A DNA stretch of 64,000 bases from Bacteroidales bacterium (GTDB lineage Bacteria; Bacteroidota; Bacteroidia; Bacteroidales; UBA12077), in NCBI GenBank assembly GCA_030611105.1, contig JAUWQL010000001.1, positions 5,531-69,530 on the forward strand. Direction: 5' to 3'. The position numbers and the translations under genes are program-made. Numbering within the stretch: the first letter of the stretch is position 1; each line of letters begins with the position of its first letter. This document shows, piece after piece, positions 18,688-49,869 of the stretch. Under the pieces are notes generated by a model, which made no database searches, was not told the origin of the DNA, and saw only the letters and a program-made list of their open reading frames with translations.

Positions 18688-18842
18688 TGTCATTCTGAGT
18701 GAAATGAATAACATGGGAATATAGAGATCCCCAATCAAGTTGAAAAAAAACAATAAACCAAGTCATTCCTGCGCAGGCAGGAATCTCTTTCTTAATAATG
18801 CGCACAAATTTGATCAGATTCTTCGTTTCACTCAGAATGACA
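18688..18842. repeat. MITE-like element with 17-bp perfect terminal inverted repeats
   Basis: TGTCATTCTGAGTGAAA at 18688-18704 pairs with TTTCACTCAGAATGACA at 18826-18842. It encloses the nested hairpin ATTCCTGC-GCAG-GCAGGAAT at 18765-18784. Confidence 0.6.
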
Positions 18843-18863: not shown

Positions 18864-20231
18864 TTATATGCTTCTTTTCAGGAATTGACCTTTTCTATCT
18901 GAAACTAATTCACCTTTTTCAATAACTATTTCTCCATTTAAAATAACAAATTCCGTAGTTCCTTTGGTTTTGATTCCTTCGTAAATTTCCAAATCGCAAT
19001 TTTGATGATGATTTTCGACTGAAATAGTATTTTCTTTTTCAGGATTCCAGATAACTAAATCAGCATCTGAACCTACAGCTATTTCACCTTTTTGTGGATG
19101 TAAACCAAATATCTTTGCAGCTTGTGTTGATGTAATATCAATAAACTGATTCAAAGTGATTCTATTTTGTAAAACACCATAGGTGTAAAGCAATGTTATC
19201 CTGTGTTCAACACCACCTGCACCGTTTGGAATTTTTCTAAAATCATCAATTCCATTTTTCTTTTGTTCTAATGTAAATGGACAATGATCTGTTCCAATAG
19301 TTTTTACAATTCCTTTATTTATTGATTCCCAAAGAATATTCTGATCTTCCCTTTTGCGTAATGGCGGACTCATAACAAGCTTAGAAGTATCTTCAAAATC
19401 ACCAATGTATTTCGTATCATCCAGAATTAAATATTGCGGACAAGTTTCGGAATAAACCTGTTGTCCGGCTTTTTGAGCTTCTTCGATATATTTAACCGAT
19501 TTTCCTGCAGAAGTATGAACAATATATATCGTACAAGCAGCTTTTTTAGCCAACTCAATTGCTTTTTTTACTGCTTCTGATTCTGTATAATCCGGTCTTG
19601 AAACAGGATGAAATTCAGGGCTTAATTTGCCTTTTTCTGCAAGTGCGTTTCTTAACTCATCTATATTATCTCCCAATTCACAATGTAATGTTACAATGCC
19701 TCCTGCTTTGCCGACAACTTGCATTACTTTAAAAATATCATCATCATTTAAGCCAATGCTATCTTTATAAGCCATATAAACTTTAAAAGAAGTTATTCCG
19801 GCTTTTATACAATCCGTAATTTCTTGTTCAGTATTTTTTGTCCATTCAACCGGACTAACATGAAAAGAATAATCGCAAATGGAATTTTCAGCTTCCGTTT
19901 TTCTTTGGTTTAAAGCATCAATTAAGGTTTGGCCTTTTTGTGGAGTAACAAAATCTATTAGGGTAGTGGTTCCGCCAAAAAGCGCTGCTTTACTTCCCGA
20001 TTTAAAATCATCCGATGAATAACCTGCAGGTGTTGGAAGGTGCATATGAACATGAGGATCTATTCCTCCGGGGAAAATATAAAATCCTTTTGCATCAATG
20101 GTTTTATCTATTGGTTCGAGAATGTTTAACAATTCCTTAATTTGAACTATTTTACCATTCGAAATATAAATATCAGAGTTAAATGACTTCTTTGAAGTTA
20201 CAATGGCTCCATTTTTTATTAAAATGTTCAT
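18864..20231 (-). CDS. hyuA: dihydropyrimidinase / D-hydantoinase (HyuA-like cyclic amidohydrolase), intact copy
   Basis: 455 aa; GGIDPHVHM metal motif and SFKVYMAYK (carbamylated-Lys region). Confidence 0.87.
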   Translation of the reverse strand: MNILIKNGAIVTSKKSFNSDIYISNGKIVQIKELLNILEPIDKTIDAKGFYIFPGGIDPHVHMHLPTPAGYSSDDFKSGSKAALFGGTTTLIDFVTPQKGQTLIDALNQRKTEAENSICDYSFHVSPVEWTKNTEQEITDCIKAGITSFKVYMAYKDSIGLNDDDIFKVMQVVGKAGGIVTLHCELGDNIDELRNALAEKGKLSPEFHPVSRPDYTESEAVKKAIELAKKAACTIYIVHTSAGKSVKYIEEAQKAGQQVYSETCPQYLILDDTKYIGDFEDTSKLVMSPPLRKREDQNILWESINKGIVKTIGTDHCPFTLEQKKNGIDDFRKIPNGAGGVEHRITLLYTYGVLQNRITLNQFIDITSTQAAKIFGLHPQKGEIAVGSDADLVIWNPEKENTISVENHHQNCDLEIYEGIKTKGTTEFVILNGEIVIEKGELVSDRKGQFLKRSI

Positions 20232-20275
20232 ATGTAAATTTACTAATTCTTTTGAGACTATAATAAGCAGCTATA

Positions 20276-20344
20276 TGTCATTCCGGACGAAGTTCCGGAA
20301 TCTTTTATATGATGTCATAGATTCCTGCCTGCGCAGAAATGACA
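20276..20344. repeat. two GTCATTCC...GGAAT-type hairpin units
   Basis: TGTCATTCCGGACGAAGTTCCGGAATC and TGTCATAGATTCCTGCCTGCGCAGAAATGACA lie between the 3TM gene and hyuA. Confidence 0.55.
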
Positions 20345-20349
20345 CATTG

Positions 20350-20982
20350 TTATTTTGTTTTATCTAAAACCTTAACAAACATTCCATCCTGATTTTCTGT
20401 AAATCCTAATTTCTTTAGATATTTAGAATATTTTACGCTTCTACCGGAAGCTTTTACAATATCAAATCTGTCATCAATAAATTTTCTTCTTAAACGAAGA
20501 TAAATAAACCGGCCATTTTTAAAATCACGGTATTCCGGTACAACATAATCGAGTCCTACTTTTAGCACGTTGTTATCTTCTCTGTGTGCAAGAAATAAAC
20601 CTGCAACAGCTGTGTTTCTCAGAATAAAAAAACTTATGGTGTTCATTTCGGGTACATAAGTAAATCCAGGAAAGAACTTTTGTATTTCTTTGTTATGAAA
20701 TTTAAGAAAACGCAACAGATATTTATTATCTGCTCTGATTTCAAGTGTTTCGAATATTTCCTTTTTTGAATAAATAGTAAAAAGATAGTAAACATCAACA
20801 ATAACAATAAAGCCATTAAGAAATCCAACTGGTAAAGCACCAATAAGAAAACCATATGTTGAAAAAGTTATGGCTCCCGCTAAATTTATCCATCTGAATT
20901 TTACAATGGAATTCATTGTCATGGATAACGCAATGATTACTGAAGCAGCATAACCTATCCACTGAAGTATGTTTGTTTCCAT
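20350..20982 (-). CDS. 3-TM (YgjV / PQ-loop-like) membrane domain fused to a GNAT-like cytoplasmic domain, copy A
   Basis: 210 aa with three N-terminal helices. The C-terminal region has GLDYVVPEYRDFKNGRFIY and YLKKLGF, resembling GNAT motif A and the GNAT C-terminus. By-eye call. Confidence 0.5.
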   Translation of the reverse strand: METNILQWIGYAASVIIALSMTMNSIVKFRWINLAGAITFSTYGFLIGALPVGFLNGFIVIVDVYYLFTIYSKKEIFETLEIRADNKYLLRFLKFHNKEIQKFFPGFTYVPEMNTISFFILRNTAVAGLFLAHREDNNVLKVGLDYVVPEYRDFKNGRFIYLRLRRKFIDDRFDIVKASGRSVKYSKYLKKLGFTENQDGMFVKVLDKTK

Positions 20983-21085
20983 AATATTGTAAGATTAAAC
21001 TAATGTAAAAATAATCAATTATCACTTAATTTCCCCTTTTATAAAGGTGGGTGGTAGGGTTGATGAAAGTTAAACTAAATATATT

Positions 21086-21356: not shown

Positions 21357-22154
21357 ATGAAGAAAATAAACTTTTTAATTTTTACAATTATTGTTATCCT
21401 ATTAGCAATGTTTGGTAAAGATTTATCTGCTCAAGAAACTGTAAGCGGAACAGTGAAATATAAGCAAACCACAAAGTTTGATTTCTCTAACAGACAGGGT
21501 ACTGGAAGAGATAGTCAACGATGGAAGGATTTTATGGCTTCTGTTCCAGACGAAGGGAATTTTTCTTATATACTTAATTTTTTAGATAATAAGGCTTTAT
21601 ATAAAGAAAATGATGCAGAACAAGAAGCACTAGATCCAGGTGTGCAAAGAGCTATGCATATTATGAGTATGACGTCACCTCCAAATGCAAAATTAATACA
21701 GGTATATTATAATATTGAAAAGAATAAAAAAATTGAGCTATTGGAACTTATGACCCGAAACTTTATTATAGAATCGGAGATTGACAGTAAAGCGTGGAAA
21801 ATAGGTACTGAAAGAAAAATGATTCTAGATTATGTGTGTATGAATGCTGAATTGAATACTGAAAATCAAGAAGTAAAAGTTTGGTTTACACCACAAATTC
21901 CTATATCAATTGGCCCAGATCGGTATACAGGTTTACCTGGATTAGTTTTAGCTGTTGAAAAAAATGGAGAAACTATTTTCTTAGCGACTGCGGTTGATTT
22001 AACTGTACCACAAAAAGTGGACGTAGCAAAGCCAAAAGATGGAAGCAAGGTTAGTCAAGAAGAGTTTGATAAAATCCTTGAAGAAAAAATAAAAGAATTT
22101 AAAGAGAATCCTAGAAGAAGAGGACAAGGTGGTAGACCAGGAGAACATAGATAA
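21357..22154 (+). CDS. GLPGLI family protein
   Basis: Signal peptide and the eponymous motif YTGLPGLVLAV. The stop overlaps the next ATG (TAATG). Confidence 0.8.
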   Translation: MKKINFLIFTIIVILLAMFGKDLSAQETVSGTVKYKQTTKFDFSNRQGTGRDSQRWKDFMASVPDEGNFSYILNFLDNKALYKENDAEQEALDPGVQRAMHIMSMTSPPNAKLIQVYYNIEKNKKIELLELMTRNFIIESEIDSKAWKIGTERKMILDYVCMNAELNTENQEVKVWFTPQIPISIGPDRYTGLPGLVLAVEKNGETIFLATAVDLTVPQKVDVAKPKDGSKVSQEEFDKILEEKIKEFKENPRRRGQGGRPGEHR

Positions 22155-24802
22155 TGAAAAAGCAACTATTTATATTAATACTAACTATAGGCCTATCATC
22201 ATTAGGCTTTTCTCAAAATTCGATAAAGGGCAGATTAATTAATGAAGCTGGCGAATCTTTGCCATATGCGACGGTAACAATGTTAAATCCTGGAGATTCA
22301 ACATTAAGATTTTTTGGTGTTACCAACAATAAAGGAATTTATCAGATCAAAAGCATTAAGAATGGTAATTATATTATGCAATTTTCATTTGTAGGAACGG
22401 AAATCGTATATGAAAATATTACTATTCCATCACCGAAAGGATATGATCTTGGTGATAAAATAATGAAGCCATCCTCAATAGAAGAAGTTATAGTTATTGG
22501 AGAATATGTCCCAATAGCCTTTAAAAGCGACACGGTAGAATTTAATGCAAAAGCATTCATAACTACACCCGATGCAGTTGTTGAAGATCTATTAAAGAAG
22601 ATTCCTGGTATTGAAGTTGATGAAACTGGCAATGTAAAAGCTTTAGGCGAGGATGTTACAAAAATATTAGTTGATGGAAAAGAGTTTTTTGGGAACGATA
22701 TCAAAGTAGCCACTAAAAACTTGCCTGCTAATGCAGTAGCAAAAGTTCAGGTTTATGACAAAAAATCGGAAGAAGCTGAATTTATGGGTATTGATGACGG
22801 TGACCGTGATAGAACAATAAATCTTTTATTGAATGAAGATAATAAAAGAGGATATTTTGGAGATGTGAAACTTGGCGGTGGAGTTGGAGGTGAAAATGGA
22901 GATCAGTCTCATTATAATGTATCAGCAAACATATACAGGTTTTCAAGTAAATTGCAAACAGCGGTTTTAGGAATGTATAACAATGTTAATGAATTTGGAT
23001 ATTCTGGAAGAAAACATGGTAATTTTGGACAACAAGTAAATGGTTTAAATACAACAGGTGCAGGTGGTTTAAATCTTTCCTATAATGCTTCCAAAATTAA
23101 CAGATACTTTGTAAGCTATTTGGGAAGATCAACGAATACCATATTAGAACAAGTAAGATTAACTCAGAATTTTTCGGATATTGGAAACTACGATCAAGAT
23201 CTAGAGCTTGAGGAGGATGAAAATGACGCACCACATACAATCAATTTTGGTGTTCGTCATAATTTTAACAAAAACCATAAACTTACACTTGATGGAGATG
23301 TTGAAATTGCATCTAATGATTTATTAAGTCAGGGAAATACACTAACAAGTGTTGATGGGATTAATATTAGTAGTTTGAGTAATGAATCTCATATTTATAC
23401 ATACGATATTAATGCAATTGCAAAGGCGGTTTATATTGCTAAGTTTAATAGCGGTAAAACACATATAAAAACGAATATTTATGGTTTATACGAGAAAGAT
23501 TCTGAAGATAATGCCTGGGAAAATATAACAACAATATTTGGTTTTCCTGATTCTACTGATTATTTAGATCAATATCAAAATAATGATACAGAAAAATTAA
23601 CATTATCGGCAAATCCAACCTTAGTACAACAAATAAAAAAGTTTTGGTATTTAAATGTTAATGTTAATGTTGGAATGACAAACGAGACGCTAGATCGTAT
23701 CCATGGAAATAATTTGGATAATACAATTGTTGATTCAGTTGGCGCTAATTTTAATACTAATGCAAGCTTTGTTCGCCCCGGAGTATCTATTAGTAGAAAT
23801 ACTTCTAAATCGCAAATTAATTTAACTTTAGGTGTAGGATTTGATCAGCTAGAGAAGAATTTAGGAGGAGTTGACCATAGATCTAAATCTTATTTTAATT
23901 TCCTTCCAAGTTTTAGTTATTCAAGTCAATACAATAAAGGGAAATGGCTAAGACTACGTTATTCTTCCAGTGTTAATATGCCTTCAGTAAGCCAACTGTT
24001 GCCAGTTACAAACACAATTAATCCTTTATCCTGGTATGAGGGTAACTCTGAACTTATTCCTGAAGTTAGACATAGTTTAAATTTGAATTGGTCCATATTT
24101 GATCAGTTTTCTTTTACTTCATTCTTTGCACGTGTTGGTGGTAGCTACACAATGAATAAAATTGGGATAGAGCAAACTACAAATGCTGATTTTACTAGGT
24201 TGATTACTCCAGTTAATGTACCATATAATTATAATCTCAATTCTGTTATTTATTTTTCAACCCCAATCAGAAAACTGGGTGTGAATTTAAATGCTAACTG
24301 GCATGAATCATGGAGTAAAGGAATTAGTATTGTAAATTTAATTGATAATATTAATACTAATTTTACACATTCCTTAAAATTAAGTTTCGAGAACAGACGA
24401 AAAGAAAAGTGGAATGTACTTATTGGAGGATCTATTAGTTTAACCGACTCAGAGTATTCTATTGCCGAATCAATGAATAATATTTATTATAATACAAGCT
24501 ATTTTGGAGAGTTGCGATTTACGCCAAGCAAAAAATTTAGTATAGAGACAAAGGCCAATATGGTAGATTATAACTCGGAAAGTTTTGATGAGTCAATAAG
24601 TATTCCACTTGTAAGTGTACGATTAAGTTATTATTTTATGAGAGGAGAGAAAGCAAGTTTAACACTTAGCGGATCAGATTTATTAGATAAAAGTCAGAAT
24701 ATTAAGCAGGTAAGCGAAGCCAATTATCTTATGCAGCAAACTAGTAATACAATTGGTAGACTAATAATGCTTACTTTTAAAATGAAAATAGCAGCAAAAT
24801 AA
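22154..24802 (+). CDS. outer-membrane beta-barrel protein with CarboxypepD_reg-like N-terminal domain (TonB-dependent-receptor-like)
   Basis: 882 aa; signal peptide, SIKGRLINEAGESLPYATV N-terminal domain, plug-like DLLKKIPGIEVD, and a beta-rich remainder. Confidence 0.7.
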   Translation: MKKQLFILILTIGLSSLGFSQNSIKGRLINEAGESLPYATVTMLNPGDSTLRFFGVTNNKGIYQIKSIKNGNYIMQFSFVGTEIVYENITIPSPKGYDLGDKIMKPSSIEEVIVIGEYVPIAFKSDTVEFNAKAFITTPDAVVEDLLKKIPGIEVDETGNVKALGEDVTKILVDGKEFFGNDIKVATKNLPANAVAKVQVYDKKSEEAEFMGIDDGDRDRTINLLLNEDNKRGYFGDVKLGGGVGGENGDQSHYNVSANIYRFSSKLQTAVLGMYNNVNEFGYSGRKHGNFGQQVNGLNTTGAGGLNLSYNASKINRYFVSYLGRSTNTILEQVRLTQNFSDIGNYDQDLELEEDENDAPHTINFGVRHNFNKNHKLTLDGDVEIASNDLLSQGNTLTSVDGINISSLSNESHIYTYDINAIAKAVYIAKFNSGKTHIKTNIYGLYEKDSEDNAWENITTIFGFPDSTDYLDQYQNNDTEKLTLSANPTLVQQIKKFWYLNVNVNVGMTNETLDRIHGNNLDNTIVDSVGANFNTNASFVRPGVSISRNTSKSQINLTLGVGFDQLEKNLGGVDHRSKSYFNFLPSFSYSSQYNKGKWLRLRYSSSVNMPSVSQLLPVTNTINPLSWYEGNSELIPEVRHSLNLNWSIFDQFSFTSFFARVGGSYTMNKIGIEQTTNADFTRLITPVNVPYNYNLNSVIYFSTPIRKLGVNLNANWHESWSKGISIVNLIDNINTNFTHSLKLSFENRRKEKWNVLIGGSISLTDSEYSIAESMNNIYYNTSYFGELRFTPSKKFSIETKANMVDYNSESFDESISIPLVSVRLSYYFMRGEKASLTLSGSDLLDKSQNIKQVSEANYLMQQTSNTIGRLIMLTFKMKIAAK

Positions 24803-24811
24803 ATTTAAAGC

Positions 24812-25858
24812 ATGGATAAAATAAAGAAATATTCTTTTTGGATAATTATTGTTTCTGCAATAATAGTTACCATATTATTTAATATTAGAAGTTTTGGACA
24901 TGTTAAGGAAATGCTCGAATCATCAAGATTTAGGGAGATGCCCGATAAAGGAATGATTCGGGTATATTTCCTGGTTTATACTTCTATTTTTCAATTTCTT
25001 ACTTTTTCCATTTTAGCTTTATTAAATTTTTCATGGAAGGAAAAAGTTGTAAACTTTGGCTATTCTAAATCCTCTAAAACATTTCTAATAATTCTTATTA
25101 ATATATTTATTTACTCACTAATTGTGATAATAGAATATACAGTTTTTGGTTTCTATTTTGATTTTAGAAGACCCATGTCTACTGACTATTTTATTTTTGC
25201 TAATATCGCTGTGGCATTGATGGCTATTGCAGAAGCTTATTTTTTATTATTATTAGGGAAAGTTAAAACATCGGAATTAGAGAATATTAAATTGAGAGAA
25301 GATAAAACAATTGCTGAACTGGCTGCTTTAAAAGATCAAATCAGTCCTCATTTCTTTTTCAATACATTAAGTTCTTTAAGTACAATTGTTCGAAATGAGA
25401 ACAAAGAAGTAGGCCTTGAGTTTATTCAGGATATGTCGAAAATATATCATTATTCTTTATCAAGTGGACAACAAGATTTAGTGAGCCTGAAAGAAGAACT
25501 TGATTTTATTCAATCGTATATTTTTTTATTGAAAAAACGCTTCGGTAAAAAATTGATGATTAAAATTGATGTTTCTGATATTTTAAATCAATCAAAAATT
25601 CCGCCAATGTCATTGCAATTGCTTATAGAAAACGCCATTCAGCACAATGTCATAACACAGGCTTCTCCCTTGTCAGTAAAAATATTTATCAAAGGAAATA
25701 TGATTTGCGTGGAGAATAATCTGCAAAAGAAAGATACAGCAGACAGCTTTGGAATTGGTCTTAAAAATTTAACGAATCGCTATCGATTATTAGCACAAAA
25801 GGGTGTTGTTATTGAGAAAGATGAACTAATTTTTAGTGTATCTTTACCTTTAATATGA
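24812..25858 (+). CDS. LytS/YehU-type sensor histidine kinase
   Basis: Membrane N-terminal half, then QISPHFFFNTL (the His_kinase PF06580-type H-box) and an HATPase N-box LLIENAIQHN. Confidence 0.8.
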   Translation: MDKIKKYSFWIIIVSAIIVTILFNIRSFGHVKEMLESSRFREMPDKGMIRVYFLVYTSIFQFLTFSILALLNFSWKEKVVNFGYSKSSKTFLIILINIFIYSLIVIIEYTVFGFYFDFRRPMSTDYFIFANIAVALMAIAEAYFLLLLGKVKTSELENIKLREDKTIAELAALKDQISPHFFFNTLSSLSTIVRNENKEVGLEFIQDMSKIYHYSLSSGQQDLVSLKEELDFIQSYIFLLKKRFGKKLMIKIDVSDILNQSKIPPMSLQLLIENAIQHNVITQASPLSVKIFIKGNMICVENNLQKKDTADSFGIGLKNLTNRYRLLAQKGVVIEKDELIFSVSLPLI

Positions 25859-26625
25859 GAGTTTTAATCATAGAAGATGAATATGGAGTAGCTCAAAATC
25901 TTTGCGATATTTTGTATGAAATTGAACCAGAAATTGAGATATTAGCTATTTTAGAAACAATAAAAGATGCTGTTGAATGGATAATGACTAATCCAAAGCC
26001 CGATTTAGGTTTCTTTGATATTCGAATTGCCGATGGCCATTCGTTTGAGATTTTTGAAAGAACTCCAGTTGATTTTCCTATCATATTTACTACTGCTTAT
26101 GATGAATATGCCCTCCAAGCATTTAAAGTAAATAGCATTGATTACCTAATGAAACCTATTGAAAAAGATTCATTGATATCTGCTTTAGATAAATATGAAT
26201 CTATATATAAAAGAGATGAAGTTACTGATAACGAAAACTTATTGAAGATTATACATGAATTACACTTGGGAGAGCAAAAAAAGTATAAGAAAAGTTTCCT
26301 TGTTTATTTTAGGGATAAGATTATTCCAATTACGGTTGAGGATATCTCTTATTTTTATTTAGAAGATGAAATAGTTTATTGTATTACACATAAAAATGAT
26401 AAATATACGATTGATCTATCCTTAGATAAAATCAATAAAAAAATAAATCCTGAAGATTTTTTCAGAGCAAACCGGCAATTCATAGTTTCTCGTACATCTA
26501 TTAAATCGGCACTTACATATTTTCATCGAAAACTCAAGCTGGAGCTTAATCCTGCTCTTTTAAAAGAGGTACTAATAAGTAAACCGAAAGTTTCCGAATT
26601 CAAAAAATGGTTGGCCGGGAATTAA
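25855..26625 (+). CDS. LytTR-family response regulator
   Basis: Receiver domain (LIIEDE ... FFDIRIADG ... YLMKP) plus a C-terminal LytTR-like domain. Overlaps the kinase gene by 4 nt. Confidence 0.87.
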   Translation: MRVLIIEDEYGVAQNLCDILYEIEPEIEILAILETIKDAVEWIMTNPKPDLGFFDIRIADGHSFEIFERTPVDFPIIFTTAYDEYALQAFKVNSIDYLMKPIEKDSLISALDKYESIYKRDEVTDNENLLKIIHELHLGEQKKYKKSFLVYFRDKIIPITVEDISYFYLEDEIVYCITHKNDKYTIDLSLDKINKKINPEDFFRANRQFIVSRTSIKSALTYFHRKLKLELNPALLKEVLISKPKVSEFKKWLAGN

Positions 26626-26697
26626 ATATGGATAAAAGAATTTAGAGATTCATTATCGTTTTGACTAAAAACCTAGAAACCGTTTGGTTGGCTAGGC

Positions 26698-27272
26698 TTA
26701 CAATTTATAGACATTGTTAGCATTTTTATTATTTTTAATTCTTTTAAAAAGACTTTGCACAATCTTATTTAAATACACTTTTGATTCAATGCATTCAAAT
26801 TCCAGCTCATTTGGTAGTTCTGAAAACAATGGAGTACCGCCACACCTAACAAAATTGGAATGGTTGTAATTACCAAGTTGTCAATTAAATCTTCCTTTAA
26901 AAATTCTTGAATTGTTGTACCGCCATCAATGTAAAGTCGATGACAACCTTTTTGATGGATTTGTTCTAATATCTCAGTTAAAGTTCCCTTAATAAGGTAG
27001 GCTTTATCTTTATAATCTTTAGGTATTTCCTTTAAAGTATTACTTAATACAAATAGTGGTTTTTCATAAGGCCAATCCATATCAAAACCACAAATTGTTT
27101 CGAAAGTTGTGCGCCCCATGACAAGCGCATCTATTTGTGATATAAATTCACCATAACCCATGTCTATATTATCAGGATTTGGGATTGAATGAAGCCAGTC
27201 GATTCCTCCATTTTTATCCGCAATATAGCCATCTAGACTTGTTGCAATAAATACACTATTTCTCTTTTCCAT
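26698..27272 (-). pseudogene. RibD-C / dihydrofolate-reductase-like family gene with a 1-nt frameshift near the 3' end
   Basis: The N-terminal 143 aa (IATSLDGYIA...IDGGTTIQEFLKEDLIDNLVITTIPILLG) are family-typical. The expected continuation GTPLFSELPNELEFECIESKVYLNKIVQS is in another frame from about 26836-26846 and runs to a stop at 26698. Confidence 0.6.
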
Positions 27273-27388: not shown

Positions 27389-28761
27389 TTAATTATATAC
27401 AGATCTTTCTAAAAACCTACCTTTATTTTCTAAAACTAATTCTCCATTTTCAACAACAATCTCTCCATTTAAAATAACAAATTCCGTAGTTCCTTTGGTT
27501 TTGATTCCTTCATAAATTTCCAAATCGCAATTTTGATGATGATTTTCGACTGAAATAGTATTTTCTTTTTCAGGATTCCAGATAACTAAATCAGCATCTG
27601 AACCTATTGCTATTTCACCTTTTTGTGGATATAAACCAAATATCTTTGCTGCATTTGTTGCAGTAATATCAATAAACTGATTCAAGGTGATTCTGTTTTG
27701 TAAAACACCATAGGTGTAAAGCAATATCATCCTGTGTTCAACACCACTTGCACCGTTTGGAATTTTTCTAAAATCAGTAATCCCTGTTTTCTTTTGTTCT
27801 AATGTAAATGGACAATGATCTGTACCAACTGTTTTAACAACACCCTTTTTTATTGATTCCCAAAGCACTTCCTGATCTTCTTTTTTACGCAAAGGCGGAC
27901 TTATAACAAAAGGAGCAGTGTCTTCAAATTCGCCTGTATATTTAGAGTCATCTAATAACAAGTACTGTGGACAAGTTTCGGAATAAACCTTTTGTCCTGC
28001 TTTTTGAGCTTCTTCTATATATTTAATTGAATCTCCAGTGGATGTATGAACAATATATATTGAGCAACTGGCTTTTTTAGCCATTTCAATAGCATTTTTA
28101 ACAGCTTCTGATTCGGTGTGTGTTGGTCGTGAAACAGGATGAAATTCAGGACTTAAATTCCCATTCCCGGCAAGTTCATTTCTCAGCTCATCAATTTTAT
28201 CTCCTGTTTCACAATGTAATGTTACAATGCCTCCTGCTTTTCCGACAACTTGCATTACTTTAAAAATGTCATCATCATTTAAGCCAATGCTATCTTTATA
28301 AGCCATATAAACCTTAAAAGAAGTTATTCCGGCTTTTACACACTCCTTAATTTCTTGCTCTGTTGTATTCGTCCATTCAACGGGACTAACATGAAAAGAA
28401 TAATCGCAAATGGAATTTTCAGTTTCCGTTTTTCTTTGGTTTAAAGCATCAATTAAGGTTTGGCCTTTTTGTGGAGTAACAAAATCTATTAGGGTAGTGG
28501 TTCCGCCAAAAAGCGCTGCTTTGCTTCCCGATTTAAAATCATCCGATGAATAACCTGCAGGTGTTGGAAGGTGCATATGAACATGAGGATCTATTCCTCC
28601 GGGAAAAATATAGAAACCTTTGGCATCAATTGTTTTATCAATAGACTCATAGATATTTAATGAATTACCATTTGGACAATTTTATTATTGGAAATATAAA
28701 TATCAGAACTGAAAGTTCGATTTGAAGTAACAATAGTACCGTTTTTGATTAAAATGCTCAT
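27389..28761 (-). pseudogene. second hyuA-like dihydropyrimidinase copy, frameshifted after codon 30
   Basis: ATG at 28761 gives MSILIKNGTIVTSNRTFSSDIYISNNKIVQMVIH and then a TAA at 28657-28659. The rest (GNSLNIYESIDKTIDAKGFYIFPGGIDPHVHMHLP...) continues in another frame. This stretch is 59 nt versus 60 nt in copy A. Confidence 0.7.
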
Positions 28762-28801
28762 GTGTAAATGTACTAATTCTTTTGTAGTATAAAATGCTGC
28801 T

Positions 28802-28911
28802 TGTCATTCCGGGCATCCCGATAGCTATAGGGACAGGAATCTGTAATTAAATCTCTAAATAGATTATTCCCTTTGGTCATGAGAAAAGTTCCTGCCTGCG
28901 CAGGAATGACA
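28802..28911. repeat. GTCATTCC...GGAATGACA hairpin-repeat cassette
   Basis: TGTCATTCCGGGCATCCCGATAGCTATAGGGACAGGAATC ... TTCCTGCCTGCGCAGGAATGACA. Same intergenic position as 20276-20344, but with different internal content. Confidence 0.55.
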
Positions 28912-28916
28912 ATTTG

Positions 28917-29549
28917 TTATTTAGTTTTATCCAAAACCTTGACAAACATTCCATCCTGATTTTCTGTAAATCCTAATTTCTTTAGATATTTAGAATATTT
29001 CTCACTTTTACCGGTAGCCATTACAGTATTGAAACCATCATCAATAAATTTTCTTCTTAAACGAAGATAGATATATCTTCCGTTTTTAAAATCACGGTAT
29101 TCGGGAATTACATAATCCAGTCCGACTTTTAGAATATTGTTATCTTCTCTGTGTGCCAGAAAAAGTCCTGCAACAGCTGTATTTCTGAGGATAAAAAAAC
29201 TTATGGTGTTTATTTCGGGTTGGTACGTAAAACCGGGAAAAAACTTTTGTATTTCTTTGTTATGAAATTCTAAGAATCGTAGTAAATATTTATTACCGGC
29301 TCTTACTTCCAGAGTTTCAAAGATTTCCTTTTTTGTGTAAATCGTAAACAGATAATAAATATCGACAGTAACAATAAAGCCATTAAGAAATCCAACAGGC
29401 AAAGCTCCAATAAGAAAACCATATGTTGAAAATGTTATGGCTCCTGCTAAATTTATCCATCTGAATTTTACAATGGAATTCATTGTCATGGATAGAGCAA
29501 TGATAACTGAAGCCGTATAACCTATCCATTGTAATATGTTTGTTTCCAT
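28917..29549 (-). CDS. 3-TM (YgjV / PQ-loop-like) plus GNAT-like fusion protein, copy B
   Basis: The track ORF begins at a TTG at 29558. The ATG at 29549 (METNILQW) matches copy A. High identity to copy A by eye. Confidence 0.5.
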   Translation of the reverse strand: METNILQWIGYTASVIIALSMTMNSIVKFRWINLAGAITFSTYGFLIGALPVGFLNGFIVTVDIYYLFTIYTKKEIFETLEVRAGNKYLLRFLEFHNKEIQKFFPGFTYQPEINTISFFILRNTAVAGLFLAHREDNNILKVGLDYVIPEYRDFKNGRYIYLRLRRKFIDDGFNTVMATGKSEKYSKYLKKLGFTENQDGMFVKVLDKTK

Positions 29550-29554
29550 AATAT

Positions 29555-30940
29555 TCAAGAAAAAAGTTTAAAGTACAAAGATAAAAGTAAAAAGGGGGAT
29601 TTAAAGAAGAATAAAGTTATAGTTTCATTTTCCCCTTTTTCTTTTTCCTTTTGTCTTTTATCTTGATTTAGGCTTGCATTTTTTTTCCAGAGTCTTAAGG
29701 ATTGTTCTTTTGAGAATGCTAAAATTTCAGATTCGTTTACATTTTGAATTTTACGGTCTTTTACAATGATTTTCCCATTGGAAATAACATCATTTATATG
29801 ATTCGAATTGATCCCAAAAATGAAATGTCCCAAAAAATTATTTTGATTGATTTCGGTAGGAGAGTCATAATCCAGAATGACCAGATTGTTTTCTCCGTCG
29901 CCATCAAATTTGTTTATTTCGATATAATCATGCACTTTTCTGAAACGATCATATGCTGACGGATAATCAATAGTATCAAAACCTTGCCCAACAAAGAAAG
30001 CTGCTTTTGCGCTTTGTAACATATCGCTATGCATTCCATCTGTCCCAAGTAGTATATTATCACCTAATCCTTTGGCATTAAAATAGCCAACTTTATTATT
30101 TAAATTACTTTCCATATTCTGGACAACAAACGATTTTGAATTTTTTATGATACTCCGTTCATTATCATCAATATGTAAACAGTGTCCAAGAATAGTTTTC
30201 GAAGAATCTAAAACTCCATAATCGTTTAAGCGTTCAATTACTCGTTTATTATAATTATCCTGACAATGTCTTTGATCATAAAGGTCTTCTGCCACATGAA
30301 TATGGAAACCTGAATTGTATTTACTCATTAAATCAGCAGCTTTTATCATAGTTTCGTCACCAACCGTGAATGAAGCATGCAAACCTACCAGCCCCTGATT
30401 CGATTTTAAATAATTTTCTGTTTCTGAAATTCCTTTTTCAGCCTTGTCTAAACCGTCTCGGTCAGTAATTTCATAACATAATAAATGACTAATACCTACT
30501 TTATCAAATGCTTTTGCGATTATATCCAATGAACCTTCAATGAAATTTGGTGATGCATGATGATCAATAACAAAAGTTGAACCAGCTTTGGCGCATGCCA
30601 TAGCTGTGGTTAAAGCACTTGCTTCAATCATATCTTTATCCAAGCATTTGTCTAATGTCCACCAGATGTATTGCAGGATTTCATAAAAGTTTTCAGGATT
30701 TTTTTTCGGAGCCCCCATTCCACGTGCTAAAGCTGAATATACATGATGATGTCCGACTGCAAAAGATTTAGTAACCAGTTTCCCTCTACAATCAATAGTT
30801 TGATCTGTATTGTTTATATTATTAATATTATCAATGAATTTTATTTTACCGGAAATTCCTTTTTCAACTTGAATATTTGTATTTCTGAATTCTAAGGTTT
30901 TCCAGTCGATATAAATAGCGTTTTTTAGTAGAATAGACAT
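29555..30940 (-). CDS. ssnA: SsnA-family aminohydrolase (chlorohydrolase/deaminase superfamily)
   Basis: 461-aa ORF; metal motif AVGHHHVYS, HIHVAED and GTDGMHSD. The last ~39 aa are a low-complexity tail downstream of an A8 run (29679-29686) and may not be genuine. Confidence 0.78.
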   Translation of the reverse strand: MSILLKNAIYIDWKTLEFRNTNIQVEKGISGKIKFIDNINNINNTDQTIDCRGKLVTKSFAVGHHHVYSALARGMGAPKKNPENFYEILQYIWWTLDKCLDKDMIEASALTTAMACAKAGSTFVIDHHASPNFIEGSLDIIAKAFDKVGISHLLCYEITDRDGLDKAEKGISETENYLKSNQGLVGLHASFTVGDETMIKAADLMSKYNSGFHIHVAEDLYDQRHCQDNYNKRVIERLNDYGVLDSSKTILGHCLHIDDNERSIIKNSKSFVVQNMESNLNNKVGYFNAKGLGDNILLGTDGMHSDMLQSAKAAFFVGQGFDTIDYPSAYDRFRKVHDYIEINKFDGDGENNLVILDYDSPTEINQNNFLGHFIFGINSNHINDVISNGKIIVKDRKIQNVNESEILAFSKEQSLRLWKKNASLNQDKRQKEKEKGENETITLFFFKSPFLLLSLYFKLFS

Positions 30941-31168: not shown

Positions 31169-33718
31169 TTAATTTCTTTGTAATGGTAATTTAAATCTTT
31201 TCTTACCATCAAATTTATTGAAAGCACAAGCAACTGCTGCTGCTGTCGGAACCATTCCTATTTCACCTATACCTTTAGCACCATATGGCCCAATAGGATC
31301 TTTTACTTCAATCATTTTAACAACTATTTCGGGAGTTTCATGAGCTCTTAAAATCTTTAAATCTCTCATCTTATCACTTACTAAAAAACCGTCTTTCATA
31401 GGAAGTGATTCTGTTAATGCATATCCTAAGCCCATGTGAACACCGCCTTCAACCTGGCCTTCGAACAACATTGGATTCATTATTTTACCGCCATCATGTG
31501 CAGCAATCATTTTTGAGATTTTTCCATTATCATCTAAAATACAAACCTGAGCTGCATAACCATATGAATAATGTGTAATTTGCTCATCAACATCTGTTTC
31601 TGGCTTGGTTGTCCAGTCGCAAACATATTGTCCTTTATATGATTTACCGGCTAATTCTTTTAATGATTTTGTTTTTAAATCTTCTTTCAAAGCTTTAGCG
31701 GCATTTATGACAGCAAGTCCAACTAAAGCAGTTGCACGGGAGGAAGTTGTCATTCCTGTTTTTATCTGTGCTTCTGTATCAACAATAACTTCAATAATTT
31801 CAGGTGAAACAGAAGTTTCTTCACATAGGGTTTGTAAAGCCATGTTATGAACTCCCTGACCCATTTCTGTCCATCCGTGTTGCAATAGAATATGATTTTC
31901 AGAAATAATATCAATAATTACTTTCGATTCATCAACCATTCCGTTACCAACACCGGAGTTTTTAATGGCACAGGATAAACCCGCAAATTTTGCATTATTA
32001 AAATCTTCTTTCACAGCATCTAAACAAGCACGAATACCAACTCCAAAAACTTTCTGTCCGGTTGAAGTTTTTAATCCATCAACCAATGCATTGTCATATC
32101 TGAATTGCCAGCGATCAAAACCTCCTTTTTCGCAAATATCATCAATACAGCTTTCAACGGCAAAAGCTACCTGGTTTGCGCCAAATCCGCGCATAGCTCC
32201 GCAAGGAATATTATTGGTATAAACCGTTTTTGCTTCAATATCAATTTCAGGAATGAAATATCCTGCAGAAGCATGTCCGGCAACACGTTCAAGAACTTTC
32301 ATGCCTACTGATGCATAGGCTCCGGTATCACCAACAGCTTTGAGTTTTAAAGAAGTTAATTTCCCGTTTTCATCTGCTCCAATTTCAATATCCATAAATA
32401 CAGGATGGCGCTTGGGATGCAATCGGATTGATTCTTCTCGTGTTAATGTTAGTTTTACAGTCTTTTTTAAAAGATACGCAAAAAGTGATGTATGTCCCTG
32501 AACACTTAAATCTTCTTTTCCTCCAAAACCACCGCCATTAGGAACAAGTGTAACACGAACTTTTTCTTCAGGTAAGCCTAAAATCATAGCAACTTGTCGG
32601 CGATCTTCATAAACTCCCTGACTCTGACTAAAAAGTTCCAAACCATCTTTTCTATCAGGCCTTGCGATGGCAGCTTCTTTTTCCAAAAAAGCATGCTCAA
32701 CGCGCTGTGTTTCATAACGACCCTTAGATGTGAATTTTGAGTTTTTTAATGCTTTATCGGCATTACCAATCGTAAATTGGGTTGTATCAAAGTTATTTGG
32801 TTTTTCAGGATGAACACGTTCACCATCAATAGCTTTGAAAACATCAGTTACAGGTTTATATACTTCATAATCTACTTTAATCAGTTTAACAGCATCTCGG
32901 GCAATATCATCCGAATCGGCAACAACTCCTGCAATTACATCACCAATGTAATGTGTTGTTTCATCTTCTCCAATCATTACATTCCAATCCTGAAGAATCA
33001 AACCTACTTTCTTTTCTCCGGGTATATCTTTTGCCGTAAATACTCTATGAACTTCGGGAAGTTTTTCAGCTTCAGAAATGTCAATTTTTAAAACTTTCGC
33101 TTTTGGGTGATCACTAAACTTTAAAGCGGCAAATAGCATCCCTTCAAAATGCATATCATCAACAAAATCACGTTCACCAATAGCTGTTCTGTAAGCATCG
33201 TATTTTGGATGCGAAACACCAATTTTACCTGATGTTTTTGTTATTTCTAATTTTTTATTCTCACGTATAGCTTCTCCTGCATATCTAATTGCTTTTTCAA
33301 TTTTTTTGTATCCGGTACAACGACAAATATGTGGTTGTATGGCTTTTTGGATTTCTTCTATACTGGGATTCGGATTATCCTGCAATAAAACTTTGGTACG
33401 ACTTATAAATCCGGGAGTACAAAATCCGCATTGTACTGCTCCTTTGTTTACAAATGCCTTAGCAATAGTGTCTTTTACATATTCAGAGAAACCTTCCGGT
33501 GTAAAAATCTCAGTTCCGTTCAAAGTCTTCATTTTGATTACACAAGATAGTTTAGCTTTTCCGTCAACCTCTACAGTACATGCTCCACAGGCGGCCTGAC
33601 CAGAACAGCCATCTTTAACGGAAGTGATATGTTTGTCGAGCCTTAAATGTTTTAATAAGGTTTTTTCAGGATCTCCCGAATAAGATTCTTTTACTCCGTT
33701 TAAAGTATAGGTAATCAT
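31169..33718 (-). CDS. XdhD-like molybdenum hydroxylase with fused N-terminal 2Fe-2S domains (selenium-dependent molybdenum hydroxylase type)
   Basis: 849 aa; two [2Fe-2S] motifs (CSGQAACGACTV; CGFCTPG ... CRCTGY), then an aldehyde-oxidase/xanthine-dehydrogenase Mo-binding body (GGGFGGKED). No FAD domain. Confidence 0.83.
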   Translation of the reverse strand: MITYTLNGVKESYSGDPEKTLLKHLRLDKHITSVKDGCSGQAACGACTVEVDGKAKLSCVIKMKTLNGTEIFTPEGFSEYVKDTIAKAFVNKGAVQCGFCTPGFISRTKVLLQDNPNPSIEEIQKAIQPHICRCTGYKKIEKAIRYAGEAIRENKKLEITKTSGKIGVSHPKYDAYRTAIGERDFVDDMHFEGMLFAALKFSDHPKAKVLKIDISEAEKLPEVHRVFTAKDIPGEKKVGLILQDWNVMIGEDETTHYIGDVIAGVVADSDDIARDAVKLIKVDYEVYKPVTDVFKAIDGERVHPEKPNNFDTTQFTIGNADKALKNSKFTSKGRYETQRVEHAFLEKEAAIARPDRKDGLELFSQSQGVYEDRRQVAMILGLPEEKVRVTLVPNGGGFGGKEDLSVQGHTSLFAYLLKKTVKLTLTREESIRLHPKRHPVFMDIEIGADENGKLTSLKLKAVGDTGAYASVGMKVLERVAGHASAGYFIPEIDIEAKTVYTNNIPCGAMRGFGANQVAFAVESCIDDICEKGGFDRWQFRYDNALVDGLKTSTGQKVFGVGIRACLDAVKEDFNNAKFAGLSCAIKNSGVGNGMVDESKVIIDIISENHILLQHGWTEMGQGVHNMALQTLCEETSVSPEIIEVIVDTEAQIKTGMTTSSRATALVGLAVINAAKALKEDLKTKSLKELAGKSYKGQYVCDWTTKPETDVDEQITHYSYGYAAQVCILDDNGKISKMIAAHDGGKIMNPMLFEGQVEGGVHMGLGYALTESLPMKDGFLVSDKMRDLKILRAHETPEIVVKMIEVKDPIGPYGAKGIGEIGMVPTAAAVACAFNKFDGKKRFKLPLQRN

Positions 33719-34965
33719 TGAATTAGTTTTTTCAGATTTTCAATAGTCGGATGAATAGATTCAGGTATGTTCAGTAGTTTTTGTACCGAATTAAGATCTT
33801 TTAGTCCGCTTCCGGTTAAAAGTACAACATTTTTGGAGCTTTTGTCAAGTTTGTTTCCCATATAATAACTCAATAAACCAGCAAATGCTGTGGCTGCTGC
33901 AGGCTCGGCAAATATTCCTGTATTTCGGGATAATATGGCTGATGCTTCAAGAATAGCATCATCAGAAACTGTTAAATACTCACCATTATATTTTTGGATA
34001 AACTGTTTAGTAAGATTGAAATTTCTGGGAATATCAACCGATATAGAGTCAGCGATTGTATTGCTTGCTTTTATTTCAAATTCTTTATTATTCAGATTTC
34101 TTACCAGATTATCGCTGCCTTCGGATTGAACTGCTATAATAGTTGGAATTTTATCAATAAACTTAAGATTTAAAAGATCTTCAAAACCCTTGTAAACTCC
34201 CGAAATAATTACACCATCGCCAACGGGAACAAAAATTCTGTCAGGAATAGATTCATTCATTTGATCAAAGATTTCAAAAGAAACTGTTTTCTTACCTTCA
34301 ATAGTTAATGGATTATAAGCAGTATTTCTGTTGTACCAGCCAAACTCTTTGCTTGCTTTTATACTTAAGTCAAATGCATCATCGTAAGTTCCTTTTACAG
34401 GTACAATGGTTGCTCCGTACATCATAATCTGAGTTAGTTTTGCAATTGGAGCCAACTCAGGAACCATTATAATTGCATTTTGGTTTTGGGCAGCACAGAG
34501 TCCTGCCAGCGATGAGCCTGCATTTCCTGTTGATGCTGTAACAATAGTTTCAAAACCTTTTTCTTTGGCATAAGCCGAAACTATGGCCGACGCCCTGTCT
34601 TTAAACGAAAAAGTGGGATTTTGAGAATCATCTTTTAGAAATAAGTGAAAAGGTAAATCTTTATTATCCAATTTGTCAAATTCATATAAAGGAGTGTTTC
34701 CGACTTTCAATTTTGGAAGACTTTCAATTTTGTCGATTGGCAACAAGTCGAGAAAAATATTCTTTTTAAAATCACTGAACAGAAAATTTTTCTGTAAAAT
34801 TTCAGAAAAGTTATAAACAATTCTAAGAATACCTTTTGGTGGAGAAGAATCATTATTTTCCTTGCTGCAATTGGGACAGAGATATAAGGTTTTATCTGAA
34901 CCGAATTGTTTTCCACAATCGGTACACTCATAAATGAATTTTTGAGTAGTGTAATTATGTTCCAT
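33715..34965 (-). CDS. threonine-synthase-like fold-type-II PLP enzyme with N-terminal zinc ribbon
   Basis: 416 aa; CTDCGK...CPNCSK zinc ribbon, PLP-lysine motif PTFSFKDRAS, and glycine loop TASTGNAGSS. Overlaps the XdhD-like gene by 4 nt. Confidence 0.7.
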   Translation of the reverse strand: MEHNYTTQKFIYECTDCGKQFGSDKTLYLCPNCSKENNDSSPPKGILRIVYNFSEILQKNFLFSDFKKNIFLDLLPIDKIESLPKLKVGNTPLYEFDKLDNKDLPFHLFLKDDSQNPTFSFKDRASAIVSAYAKEKGFETIVTASTGNAGSSLAGLCAAQNQNAIIMVPELAPIAKLTQIMMYGATIVPVKGTYDDAFDLSIKASKEFGWYNRNTAYNPLTIEGKKTVSFEIFDQMNESIPDRIFVPVGDGVIISGVYKGFEDLLNLKFIDKIPTIIAVQSEGSDNLVRNLNNKEFEIKASNTIADSISVDIPRNFNLTKQFIQKYNGEYLTVSDDAILEASAILSRNTGIFAEPAAATAFAGLLSYYMGNKLDKSSKNVVLLTGSGLKDLNSVQKLLNIPESIHPTIENLKKLIQ

Positions 34966-35185: not shown

Positions 35186-36658
35186 TTATAATAATCCGGT
35201 TCTTTCGTTAAACTCATTAATTAATTCATCCCATCGATTTAACTGATTAAATTGTTTATCCCAGATTTCTCTATCATTCCATAACTGATTCAAATCTTCA
35301 ACTTCTTTTTCTTGTTGTTCAATCCATGTAAAATATTTCAGATTATGAATAGCTTTTTTATCGTAATAATTTAGCTCTTTAGTATAATCGATGGTACAAC
35401 CAAGCATACATTTTTCAAAATCTTTAACCGCCTGAATTTGGTTGTATTCACCTCGTTTTGCTTCCAGTTCGGCAATTCTTGATTGATACATATCTGCTGA
35501 ATCAGTAGCAATGGTAATAACTACATCATCTTCAGTCATTTCGTAATATTTTGCTATTTTTATTGATGATAGTAAATTACCAATACCGGATACTCCGATT
35601 AAATGAAGATTATCAATGATTTCCTGATCAATTCCAATCGATTTTAAATATTTATGACCTTCTTTCTCATTGAATAAACGAAGAATTCTCATACAATCTT
35701 CATCGTCAATTGCTGTTACAACATCCGTATTTTTAACATTATGAATCCATGGTACATGTTTGTCGCCTATACCTTCAATTCTATGTCCGCCAAATCCATT
35801 CATTAAAAGGGTAGGGCACTGTAAAGCTTCTGATGCAACAACTTTTAAATGCGGAGTAATAGTTCTCAGATAATCTCCGGCAGCAATTGTTCCAGCTGAT
35901 CCTGTTGCAGAAATATAAGCTGCTAAATTACTTTTTTCTTTTTTTACCAGATTGTAAACTTCTTCGATTGCTTTACCTGTTGTATTGTAGTGCCAGGCAG
36001 CATTTCCAAACTCATCGAACTGATTGAATATTACACAATCAGGGCGGGTTCTTCTGATTTCCCAACATTTATCGTAGATTTCTTTTACGTTTGATTCACA
36101 TCCGGGAGTAGCAATAACTTCAGAGCCAATTATATCGCGTAACCAGGTAAAGCGTTCTTCACTCATTTCTTCCGGTAAAATTGATACAGATTCTGTACCC
36201 ATTAATTTTGAATCAAATGCTCCACCGCGGCAATAATTTCCTGTTGATGGCCAAACTGCTTTATGATAACTTGGATCAAATTCACCGGTTGTAATTCTTG
36301 GTGCTAAGCAACCATAAGCGGCTCCAACTTTATGCGATCCGGTTGGAAACCATTTTCCTATCAGTAAAACAATTCTTGCTTTAACACCTGTAAGCTCTTT
36401 TGGTAATTCTATATAGTTCACATTTCCAAACAAACCGCCTTTTTCTTTTGGCTCGTTTTTCCAGGTAATTCTGAAAAGATTTAAAGGATTTATTTCCCAT
36501 AAACCTATGTTTTTTAGTTGATCTTTAATTTTATCAGGAATTAATTCCGGATTTCTTTGTTGTTCAAAAGTTGGAAGAATTATTCCGTTTTCTTTGTATC
36601 GTTTCACAGCATTTTTTAATGCTTTCTCATTGGTTACTTTATCAATTATAGGAATCAT
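35186..36658 (-). CDS. atypical 490-aa fold-type-II PLP-dependent enzyme (Trp-synthase-beta superfamily)
   Basis: Candidate PLP lysine in FPTGSHKVGAAYG and glycine loop ISATGSAGTIAAG, plus long N- and C-terminal extensions. The precise family was not recognised. Confidence 0.55.
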   Translation of the reverse strand: MIPIIDKVTNEKALKNAVKRYKENGIILPTFEQQRNPELIPDKIKDQLKNIGLWEINPLNLFRITWKNEPKEKGGLFGNVNYIELPKELTGVKARIVLLIGKWFPTGSHKVGAAYGCLAPRITTGEFDPSYHKAVWPSTGNYCRGGAFDSKLMGTESVSILPEEMSEERFTWLRDIIGSEVIATPGCESNVKEIYDKCWEIRRTRPDCVIFNQFDEFGNAAWHYNTTGKAIEEVYNLVKKEKSNLAAYISATGSAGTIAAGDYLRTITPHLKVVASEALQCPTLLMNGFGGHRIEGIGDKHVPWIHNVKNTDVVTAIDDEDCMRILRLFNEKEGHKYLKSIGIDQEIIDNLHLIGVSGIGNLLSSIKIAKYYEMTEDDVVITIATDSADMYQSRIAELEAKRGEYNQIQAVKDFEKCMLGCTIDYTKELNYYDKKAIHNLKYFTWIEQQEKEVEDLNQLWNDREIWDKQFNQLNRWDELINEFNERTGLL

Positions 36659-39044: not shown

Positions 39045-39171
39045 CCATTCTTTTGCATGTTCTTTTTGATCCCATTCTTGATAATCACTTAAATGTTCTT
39101 TATACTGCCGGCCGAAATAAGTCCCATTTATATGATAATGTTTTTCTAAACTATTACTACTAATTGGAAAA

Positions 39172-44298: not shown

Positions 44299-44305
44299 TT
44301 GGAAT

Positions 44306-46558: not shown

Positions 46559-46571
46559 AGTAATCGTCAGT

Positions 46572-49863: not shown

Positions 49864-49869
49864 CTTAGA

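Follow-up and report, generated by a model that had tools for sequence, protein, structure and literature searches.

A 210-residue protein with a SemiSWEET/YgjV-type membrane module and a GNAT domain encoded in the anaerobic urate cluster of a Bacteroidales lineage

The locus and its two gene copies

A stretch of 64,000 nucleotides from a Bacteroidales bacterium (assembly GCA_030611105.1, contig JAUWQL010000001.1, positions 5,531 to 69,530; hereafter the window) carries, within a cluster of purine-degradation genes, two copies of a gene coding for a 210-residue protein whose domains, distribution and possible role are described here. Copy A (20350..20982) and copy B (28917..29549) both lie on the minus strand and are intact, and both translations are 210 residues long and start with METNILQWIGY. 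Copy A, taken from the list of open reading frames (ORFs) and its translation, starts with ATG and is identical to the database protein P0001. An earlier interpretation made from the nucleotide sequence alone (the sequence-only reading) had placed two ORFs at these positions without stating the strand and had quoted the strings LDYVVPEYRDFKNGRFIY and YLKKLGF; both ORFs are present and both strings were found in copy A. The two proteins are 91% identical and, since the rate of synonymous substitution (dS) was 0.67 and the ratio of the nonsynonymous to the synonymous rate (dN/dS) 0.076, both copies are under strong purifying selection and have been retained by it.

Comparison of the two regions showed that the duplication proposed earlier is real: a segment made up of hyuA and the 210-residue gene is repeated at 18888-20988 and 27419-29555 with about 87% nucleotide identity. 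Because the duplicated segment ends 6 nt before the ATG of copy A, this copy has lost the upstream operon; it is preceded by an unrelated GLPGLI gene in divergent orientation, with no ssnA, and followed by the intact hyuA-A (18864..20231, minus strand), of the D-hydantoinase/dihydropyrimidinase type (TIGR02033, 549 bits). The ATG of copy B (position 29549) lies 5 nt past the stop codon (29555-29557) of ssnA, in agreement with the abutting start that had been described; ssnA (29555..30940, minus strand) matched the aminohydrolase SsnA model NF005540 of NCBIfam with E 3.6e-115 and 385 bits, below the curated cut-off of 444. Downstream of copy B, three-frame translation against hyuA-A revealed that hyuA-B (27389..28761, minus strand) carries a 1-nt deletion near codons 31-34 and a stop at codon 35, leaving a 395-residue ORF remnant (27389-28576) that matches the hydantoinase profile from position 68; it could be a real pseudogene or an assembly error of the metagenome-derived genome. 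The placement of the gene between ssnA and hyuA, as given in the sequence-only reading, is thus correct for copy B only, where hyuA is broken, and does not apply to copy A.

Between the two [hyuA + gene] copies lie about 6.4 kb coding for a GLPGLI protein, an outer-membrane beta-barrel protein, a histidine-kinase/LytTR pair and a RibD_C protein. These intervening genes (21357-27272) are unrelated; the beta-barrel protein carries a CarboxypepD_reg domain and the His_kinase/LytTR genes form a two-component pair. Insertions between the 210-residue gene and hyuA were also found at loci L005, L007, L008 and L022, and this junction seems prone to insertion.

A terminator scan identified, directly past the stop of copy B, a hairpin TTCCTGCGCAGGCAGGAA followed by the T-run CTTTTCTC (28889..28906, minus strand), with an RNA folding energy of -12.9 kcal/mol (z = -2.6). 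The same palindromic hairpin lies past the stop of copy A (about 20321..20339, minus strand; -14.6 kcal/mol, z = -3.1) with no clear T-run. The 5-nt spacing to ssnA together with the terminator-like hairpin points to co-transcription of copy B with the upstream genes for enzymes dependent on pyridoxal phosphate (PLP), xanthine dehydrogenase (XDH) and SsnA. The palindrome ATTCCTGCGCAGGCAGGAAT, or a near copy of it, occurs three times in all, the third at 18765-18784 between the convergent ygeW and hyuA-A genes. A sigma-70 promoter scan was uninformative (69 sites versus 64.6 expected); Bacteroidota promoters differ from the sigma-70 consensus. An Rfam scan revealed no riboswitch or other regulatory RNA near either copy, its sole match in the window being a class A RNase P RNA at 59348-59675 (plus strand, 197 bits).

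The window carries orthologues of a selenium-dependent XDH, YgfK, SsnA, HyuA, YgeW, YgeY and XdhC, and on this gene content the cluster is assigned to the reductive urate/2,8-dioxopurine pathway. In the published pathway XdhD reduces urate to isoxanthine, YgfK dearomatises isoxanthine, SsnA opens the pyrimidine ring to give ureidomethyl-hydantoin, HyuA yields 2,3-diureidopropionate, YgeW or UacY albizziin, YgeY 2,3-diaminopropionate and YgeX pyruvate (bioRxiv 10.1101/2025.05.19.654654). Neither this paper nor the second one of 2025 (bioRxiv 10.1101/2025.04.24.650524) mentions a GNAT, an acetyltransferase, a membrane protein, a cluster transporter or Bacteroidota, which agrees with the earlier statement that no such component was known in the described clusters; in comparison with those published, finding the gene in a urate operon of Bacteroidales is new.

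Synteny was assessed in the orthologous clade, defined by about 63% identity or more, using 80 loci from species-representative genomes whose proteins are 68-93% identical to the window protein. SsnA is encoded directly upstream on the same strand at 54 of 67 assessable loci and HyuA directly downstream at 52 of 71, with five more having HyuA within 6 kb; where both flanks could be assessed, SsnA and/or HyuA was present at 53 of 59 loci. The survey of co-occurrence with ssnA and hyuA that had been suggested therefore gave a strong association in this clade. The order along the locus is AsnC; CysK/SbnA-like PLP enzyme, ThrC-like PLP enzyme, selenium-dependent XDH, SsnA, the 210-residue gene, HyuA; YgeW, YgeY; XdhC, and YgfK lies beyond AsnC in the conserved block.

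Two PLP enzymes are encoded upstream in the window, both conserved in nearly all Bacteroidales loci. The product of 33715-34965 (minus strand) is threonine-synthase-like (TIGR00260, 191 bits, above the cut-off), and its assignment as DpaL/YgeX was dropped on this NCBIfam result; that of 35186-36658 (minus strand) is CysK/SbnA-like and falls below all NCBIfam cut-offs. Diaminopropionate ammonia-lyase is absent from the NCBIfam matches listed for either enzyme, and the last step of the pathway in Bacteroidales may differ from that in E. coli and Clostridia. YgfK and the AsnC regulator are separated by an ISL3-family transposase (DDE_Tnp_ISL3; 38196-39522, minus strand), preceded by an ORF matching the N-terminal region of the ISAon1 transposase; the two may be parts of one insertion sequence within the purine island that was split or frameshifted. 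The island continues at 43622-52322 with a MocA-like nucleotidyltransferase, a second xanthine dehydrogenase of the XdhAB type (44306-47975) and ModABC. DnaA is encoded at 50889-52322, so that the purine cluster lies close to dnaA, a gene found near the replication origin in many bacteria.

The two domains and their conservation

The C-terminal domain of the protein has a GNAT fold. An AlphaFold2 model built with 29 close homologues (predicted local distance difference test score, pLDDT, 78.5, and 84-90 over most of the GNAT domain) showed three helices followed by a mixed alpha/beta domain, in which residues 77-205 (20368..20754, minus strand, in copy A) follow the order b1-a1-a2-b2-b3-b4-a3-b5-a4-b6, the canonical GNAT order. 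A Foldseek search of the PDB gave 119 matches with E <= 1e-3, and nearly all of the 50 listed are GNAT acetyltransferases with probability 1.00 and target-normalised TM-scores of 0.43-0.69, among them 3D8P, GCN5/PCAF, 3LOD, PaiA and SACOL1063. Searched against PDB sequences, a profile of 135 diverse relatives matched YqjY (E 1.2e-4), Naa30, streptothricin acetyltransferase and glyphosate N-acetyltransferase. When the profile was built from close homologues there was no match even at E <= 10, and only the more diverse alignments yielded any. At E <= 0.01, Acetyltransf_1 matched 24 and Acetyltransf_10 matched 14 of the 135 relatives. The GNAT-like C-terminal domain of the sequence-only reading is borne out by the strand order, the Foldseek probabilities and the profile matches alike. 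A lipid N-acyltransferase of the OlsB/GlsB type was also considered and set aside, the matches being to short-acyl GNATs of the Acetyltransf_1/10 type.

Hidden Markov model (HMM) alignments showed that the family signature P-x-Y-R-D-F-K-x-G aligns with GNAT motif A (R/Q-x-x-G-x-G/A). In copy A the motif reads R152-D-F-K155-N-G157, with the Arg and the last Gly kept and a Lys at position 4, and the domain ends in Y188-L-K-K-L-G-F194. Other residues at position 4 have precedents in glyphosate N-acetyltransferase (R-E-Q-K-A-G, with Lys) and in YqjY (R-K-M-Q-I-G, with Gln). Glyphosate N-acetyltransferase is an enzyme dependent on acetyl-coenzyme A (acetyl-CoA) and, because it has the same Lys, the motif of the present family would be compatible with CoA binding. 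Residues R122, G128, D145, R152, D153, Y188, G193 and F194 are conserved in at least 90% of the superfamily, a pattern that fits a working active site and not a decayed domain.

The N-terminal module of copy A (residues 1-72; 20767..20982, minus strand) contains three transmembrane (TM) helices, placed by the AlphaFold2 model at residues 3-21, 26-46 and 50-72. Modelled alone, the module gave helices 3-21, 26-46 and 50-73 with a pLDDT of 89.9. Built on the first 76 residues of 63 diverse members, a profile had five matches in the PDB at E <= 10, all to SemiSWEETs (best E 0.015) and with alignments spanning all three helices, and hhalign against the Leptospira biflexa SemiSWEET (LbSemiSWEET) gave the same register with E 2.5e-4. 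Among the 135 relatives at E <= 0.01, Imp-YgjV (PF10688) matched 92 (best E 2e-7), the match spanning about positions 84-158 of the 159-position model, i.e. its second half, in the members inspected; a few relatives reach the gathering cut-off (e.g. P0150, 24.7 versus 23.5 bits) and the window protein is below it. The NCBIfam model SemiSWEET_2 matched 17 of the 135 (best E 3.3e-5) and MtN3_slv two, with single matches to SemiSWEET_3, PnuC (weak) and LAB_N. The support for homology of the membrane module to the SemiSWEET/YgjV group thus comes from several profile results that are independent of one another and not from comparing structures, and the YgjV/LAB_N/PQ-loop-like character ascribed earlier to the three helices agrees with the same matches.

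Alignment with LbSemiSWEET revealed that F40, Y43, G44, P51 and N56 correspond to W48, Y51, G52, P59 and N64. In LbSemiSWEET, Trp48 and Asn64 coordinate the substrate, and Tyr51 and Gly52 are conserved in the second TM helix (PMC5972207). The near-invariant residues of the module are Y11, S14, S20, F40, Y43, G44, P51 and N56; Asn56 is invariant, and Phe40, in place of Trp48, nearly so.

Lys and Arg cluster in loop 1, with 2.2 residues per sequence, and directly behind TM3, with 1.9, and are rare in the N-terminus (0.02) and loop 2 (0.06). By the positive-inside rule the predicted topology is N-out/C-in with a cytoplasmic GNAT domain, in line with the location given to the C-terminal domain in the earlier description. 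In the model TM3 is joined to b1 (residue 77) by a linker of four residues.

The family is large. At 90% clustering 1,455 homologues were found, nearly all full length among the 120 listed, which places the gene far beyond a chance ORF, and a profile search returned 1,554 clusters at 50% identity, 313 of them with E <= 1e-30. Since nearly all members are 205-215 residues long and match the profile end to end, the fusion of membrane module and GNAT domain has been retained and is an old, stable architecture. The source names are mainly Bacteroidota, and every public record found is annotated as hypothetical protein. The protein combines two known folds in a new architecture and represents a large family without a name or a Pfam or NCBIfam model; we found no account of an enzyme joined to a bundle of the SemiSWEET/YgjV type.

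Proposed function and competing explanations

By analogy with the systems to which its two halves are related, the reading that we favour, with a probability of about 40%, is a facilitator of the SemiSWEET type that would work as a dimer and pass its solute to the tethered GNAT domain for N-acylation. The protein is a two-domain inner-membrane protein, with residues 1-72 forming an N-out/C-in bundle and the GNAT domain lying directly under the cytoplasmic end of TM3. Two bundles, as in SemiSWEETs, would form a dimer with a path for small solutes lined by Phe40 and Asn56, and the GNAT domain, acting as an acyl-CoA N-acyltransferase, would acylate the solute at the cytoplasmic mouth. Facilitated diffusion would in this way be coupled to a chemical modification, by which a solute could be trapped on uptake or an unwanted amine tagged and released. 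In this Bacteroidales clade the gene would be the last cistron of the PLP-enzyme/XDH/SsnA unit and the cargo an amine-bearing metabolite tied to the 2,8-dioxopurine pathway, D-2,3-diaminopropionate and albizziin being the obvious intermediates with a free amine. Both of these compounds are antimetabolites. Of the 11 residues specific to the clade, nine fall within the GNAT domain, and together with a universal pocket this would agree with a carrier shared by the family on which the acceptor has changed. The coupling is favoured by the predicted topology, the short linker, the near-universal retention of the fusion and the precedent of the Pnu transporters; the tie to the pathway is favoured by the synteny, the 5-nt spacing and hairpin at copy B, the clade-specific GNAT residues and the lack of a recognisable purine permease among the window ORFs scanned with Pfam. 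The data establish domain identities, topology, conservation, synteny and purifying selection, and from these dimerisation, transport, acyl transfer, their coupling and the substrate are inferred. Should transport and acylation be coupled, the protein would represent a compact new way of giving direction to a passive carrier.

Several observations weigh against this proposal. Those concerning the protein itself begin with the Pfam and NCBIfam scans, in which no match to either copy reached threshold. For the membrane module, a Foldseek search with the three-helix model on its own had no significant result (best E 0.75): SWEET/SemiSWEET entries stood at rank 1 and filled 11 of the 50 top places, but with E >= 0.75 and root-mean-square deviations of 6-8 A; of the structure predictions proposed for the two halves, that of the GNAT half thus matched solved GNATs and that of the membrane half had no significant counterpart. 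The hhalign probability against LbSemiSWEET was only 43%. The PQ motif (P19-Q20 of LbSemiSWEET) falls in a gap of both alignments, the family having S20-[LM]-x-M-x-S in its place, and loop 1 is about 12 residues shorter than in SemiSWEETs. In the GNAT domain the conserved Tyr188 is one residue off the usual position of the general-acid Tyr in the HMM alignments.

The loss of the PQ hinge, the shortened loop 1 and the Foldseek result for the module would also be expected of a membrane-anchored GNAT, in which a SemiSWEET-derived bundle that no longer transports serves only to tether and dimerise a cytoplasmic acetyltransferase acting on a soluble metabolite or on a protein at the membrane surface. 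The anchor reading is also favoured by the closest GNAT matches, which include protein and N-terminal acetyltransferases such as GCN5, Naa30 and RimI, and by the many unrelated contexts of the gene. However, conservation is higher in the membrane module than in the catalytic domain, with mean pairwise identities of 46% versus 31% in the superfamily and 82% versus 75% in the clade, which is hard to reconcile with a passive anchor; furthermore, its near-invariant polar and aromatic residues align with the pocket and the second TM helix of SemiSWEETs, while a passive anchor should keep only hydrophobicity. We consider a mere anchor unlikely.

The remaining observations against a coupled carrier and acyltransferase in urate degradation concern the pathway and the distribution of the family. 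The pathway is complete in vitro with XdhD, YgfK, SsnA, HyuA, YgeW/UacY, YgeY and YgeX, without an acyltransferase (bioRxiv 10.1101/2025.05.19.654654). A motif-based metagenome scan yielded 80 loci, all true relatives; 12 encode proteins at least 63% identical, and six of the seven of these with usable flanks carry SsnA, HyuA or XDH, while none of the 67 relatives at 30-53% identity (about 84% of the sample) has a purine-pathway gene nearby. The neighbour census of the wider superfamily gave no recurrent partner (EamA 4, CTP synthase 3, others 1-2 each), and the neighbours seen in individual look-ups were HSP20 and a methyltransferase, ribosomal protein S20 and glutamate racemase, LD-carboxypeptidase, and methionyl-tRNA formyltransferase. 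Within the clade, loci L020, L023, L025 and L169 have an intact orthologue, 74-76% identical, with no purine enzyme genes nearby, flanked by an aldehyde:ferredoxin oxidoreductase gene and by EamA-UPF0029-PyrB-PyrI, the same flank that follows XdhC in the window; L024 and L072 likewise lack purine enzymes. The equivalents of the SemiSWEET pocket are identical in purine and non-purine members, and so no specificity for a purine solute is visible in the membrane module.

Occurrence mostly outside purine contexts had been named in the sequence-only reading as a result that would count against it; this is what the superfamily shows, and the opposite holds among orthologues (SsnA at 54/67 and HyuA at 52/71 loci). 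The evidence for the purine link is synteny within a single clade. The functional reading, a transporter for a purine-derived intermediate, is plausible but only partly favoured, and the distribution across the whole family weakens it.

The same distribution bears on the view that the gene is a passenger whose function, by whatever mechanism, is unrelated to purine breakdown. It would have occupied this chromosomal position before the purine genes were gathered around it or lost, and the synteny would be inherited and not functional. The loci of the clade without purine enzymes, four of which keep the gene before EamA-UPF0029-PyrB-PyrI, and the unrelated contexts of about 84% of the sampled superfamily agree with it, as does the window itself, where both gene copies are intact while one adjacent hyuA is broken. 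It is nevertheless improbable in our estimate. Loci labelled Tenuifilaceae, Lentimicrobiaceae, Rikenellaceae, Prolixibacteraceae and Marinilabiliales all retain the order SsnA-gene-HyuA on one strand, although rearrangements affect the rest of the cluster; a Salinivirgaceae member of 48-49% identity still follows XDH-SsnA, with no HyuA downstream; and the 5-nt spacing implies co-translation with SsnA.

A separate subfamily is, in addition, linked to a purine permease. A relative of 47% identity (L094, 5834-7636) lies 13 nt past a Xan_ur_permease gene in a nucleoside-salvage locus that also has adenosine deaminase, NUP and nucleoside phosphorylases, and this is a second, independent link to purines and nucleosides. 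Such a link would suit an uptake facilitator for urate, xanthine or isoxanthine, the flat purine ring being sandwiched between the two Phe40 of the dimer and the GNAT domain serving a regulatory or ligand-sensing role, for instance for acetyl-CoA or CoA, and not acting on the cargo as an enzyme. A purine permease, whether of the NCS2 type or otherwise recognisable, is not among the Pfam-scanned ORFs of the 35-kb island of the window, whose further transporter-like genes are limited to ModABC and a weak EamA-like match. In translation the gene is adjacent to ssnA, and the aromatic and Asn pocket equivalents are conserved. On the other side, the salvage locus already has Xan_ur_permease and NUP, which would make a further carrier redundant, the pocket residues are identical in non-purine members, the near-invariance of GNAT residues with a catalytic or CoA-binding look is unexpected for a pseudoenzyme, and there is no obvious need to acylate purine rings. 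Uptake of the purine itself is the most doubtful of these explanations.

The facilitator with a tethered N-acyltransferase can be extended to a more specific proposal, a group translocation by a SWEET fold, in which the fused GNAT domain N-acylates the cargo emerging from the SemiSWEET-type dimer and one Bacteroidales lineage recruited the protein into anaerobic uric-acid degradation, either for a step so far unrecognised or as a safety valve, with D-2,3-diaminopropionate, albizziin or a related amine as the substrate. In this full form the proposal is speculative and unlikely; if true, a passive carrier would gain direction with neither ion coupling nor ATP. It was not until 2025 that the anaerobic urate pathway was elucidated, in E. 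coli and Clostridia, and a conserved, unexplained gene in a urate operon is a concrete and cheap target for research on anaerobic urate disposal.

Comparison with known systems

Compared with the urate clusters of E. coli and Clostridia, the Bacteroidales cluster shares the orthologues named above and differs in the additional 210-residue membrane gene, placed between ssnA and hyuA, and in having ThrC-like and CysK/SbnA-like PLP enzymes where YgeX is expected.

The membrane module resembles SemiSWEETs (MtN3_slv/PQ-loop clan; L. biflexa, PDB 4QNC) in its three TM helices within about 70-90 residues and in the alignment of a G-Y motif in TM1, a Y-G motif in TM2 and a P-x4-N motif in TM3. It differs in the absence of the PQ hinge, the short loop 1 and the Phe in place of Trp, and the module does not stand alone but bears an enzyme domain of 135 residues. 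The best curated sequence match of the module is E. coli YgjV (PF10688), of an uncharacterised inner-membrane family for which no assigned function was found in the papers searched; the match covers one of apparently two repeats, and YgjV is without a GNAT domain.

The C-terminal domain shares with YqjY (1MK4), Naa30, glyphosate N-acetyltransferase and GCN5 the fold, the strand order, the motif-A Arg and terminal Gly, and an aligned Y-x-K-x-G-F end of a4. In contrast to these GNATs, with which its sequence identity is 11-15%, it has R-D-F-K-x-G with Lys where most have Gly, its Tyr is shifted by one residue, and it is tethered to the membrane through four residues.

The closest parallel to the proposed principle, though not to family membership, is given by the Pnu transporters (PnuC and PnuT with their kinases), whose SWEET-related fold works by facilitated diffusion plus metabolic trapping (PMC5749112), so that direction comes from modification of the cargo in the cytoplasm. 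The Pnu proteins have 7-8 TM helices in one chain and a separate kinase, whereas in the 210-residue protein the putative acyltransferase is fused to the membrane module.

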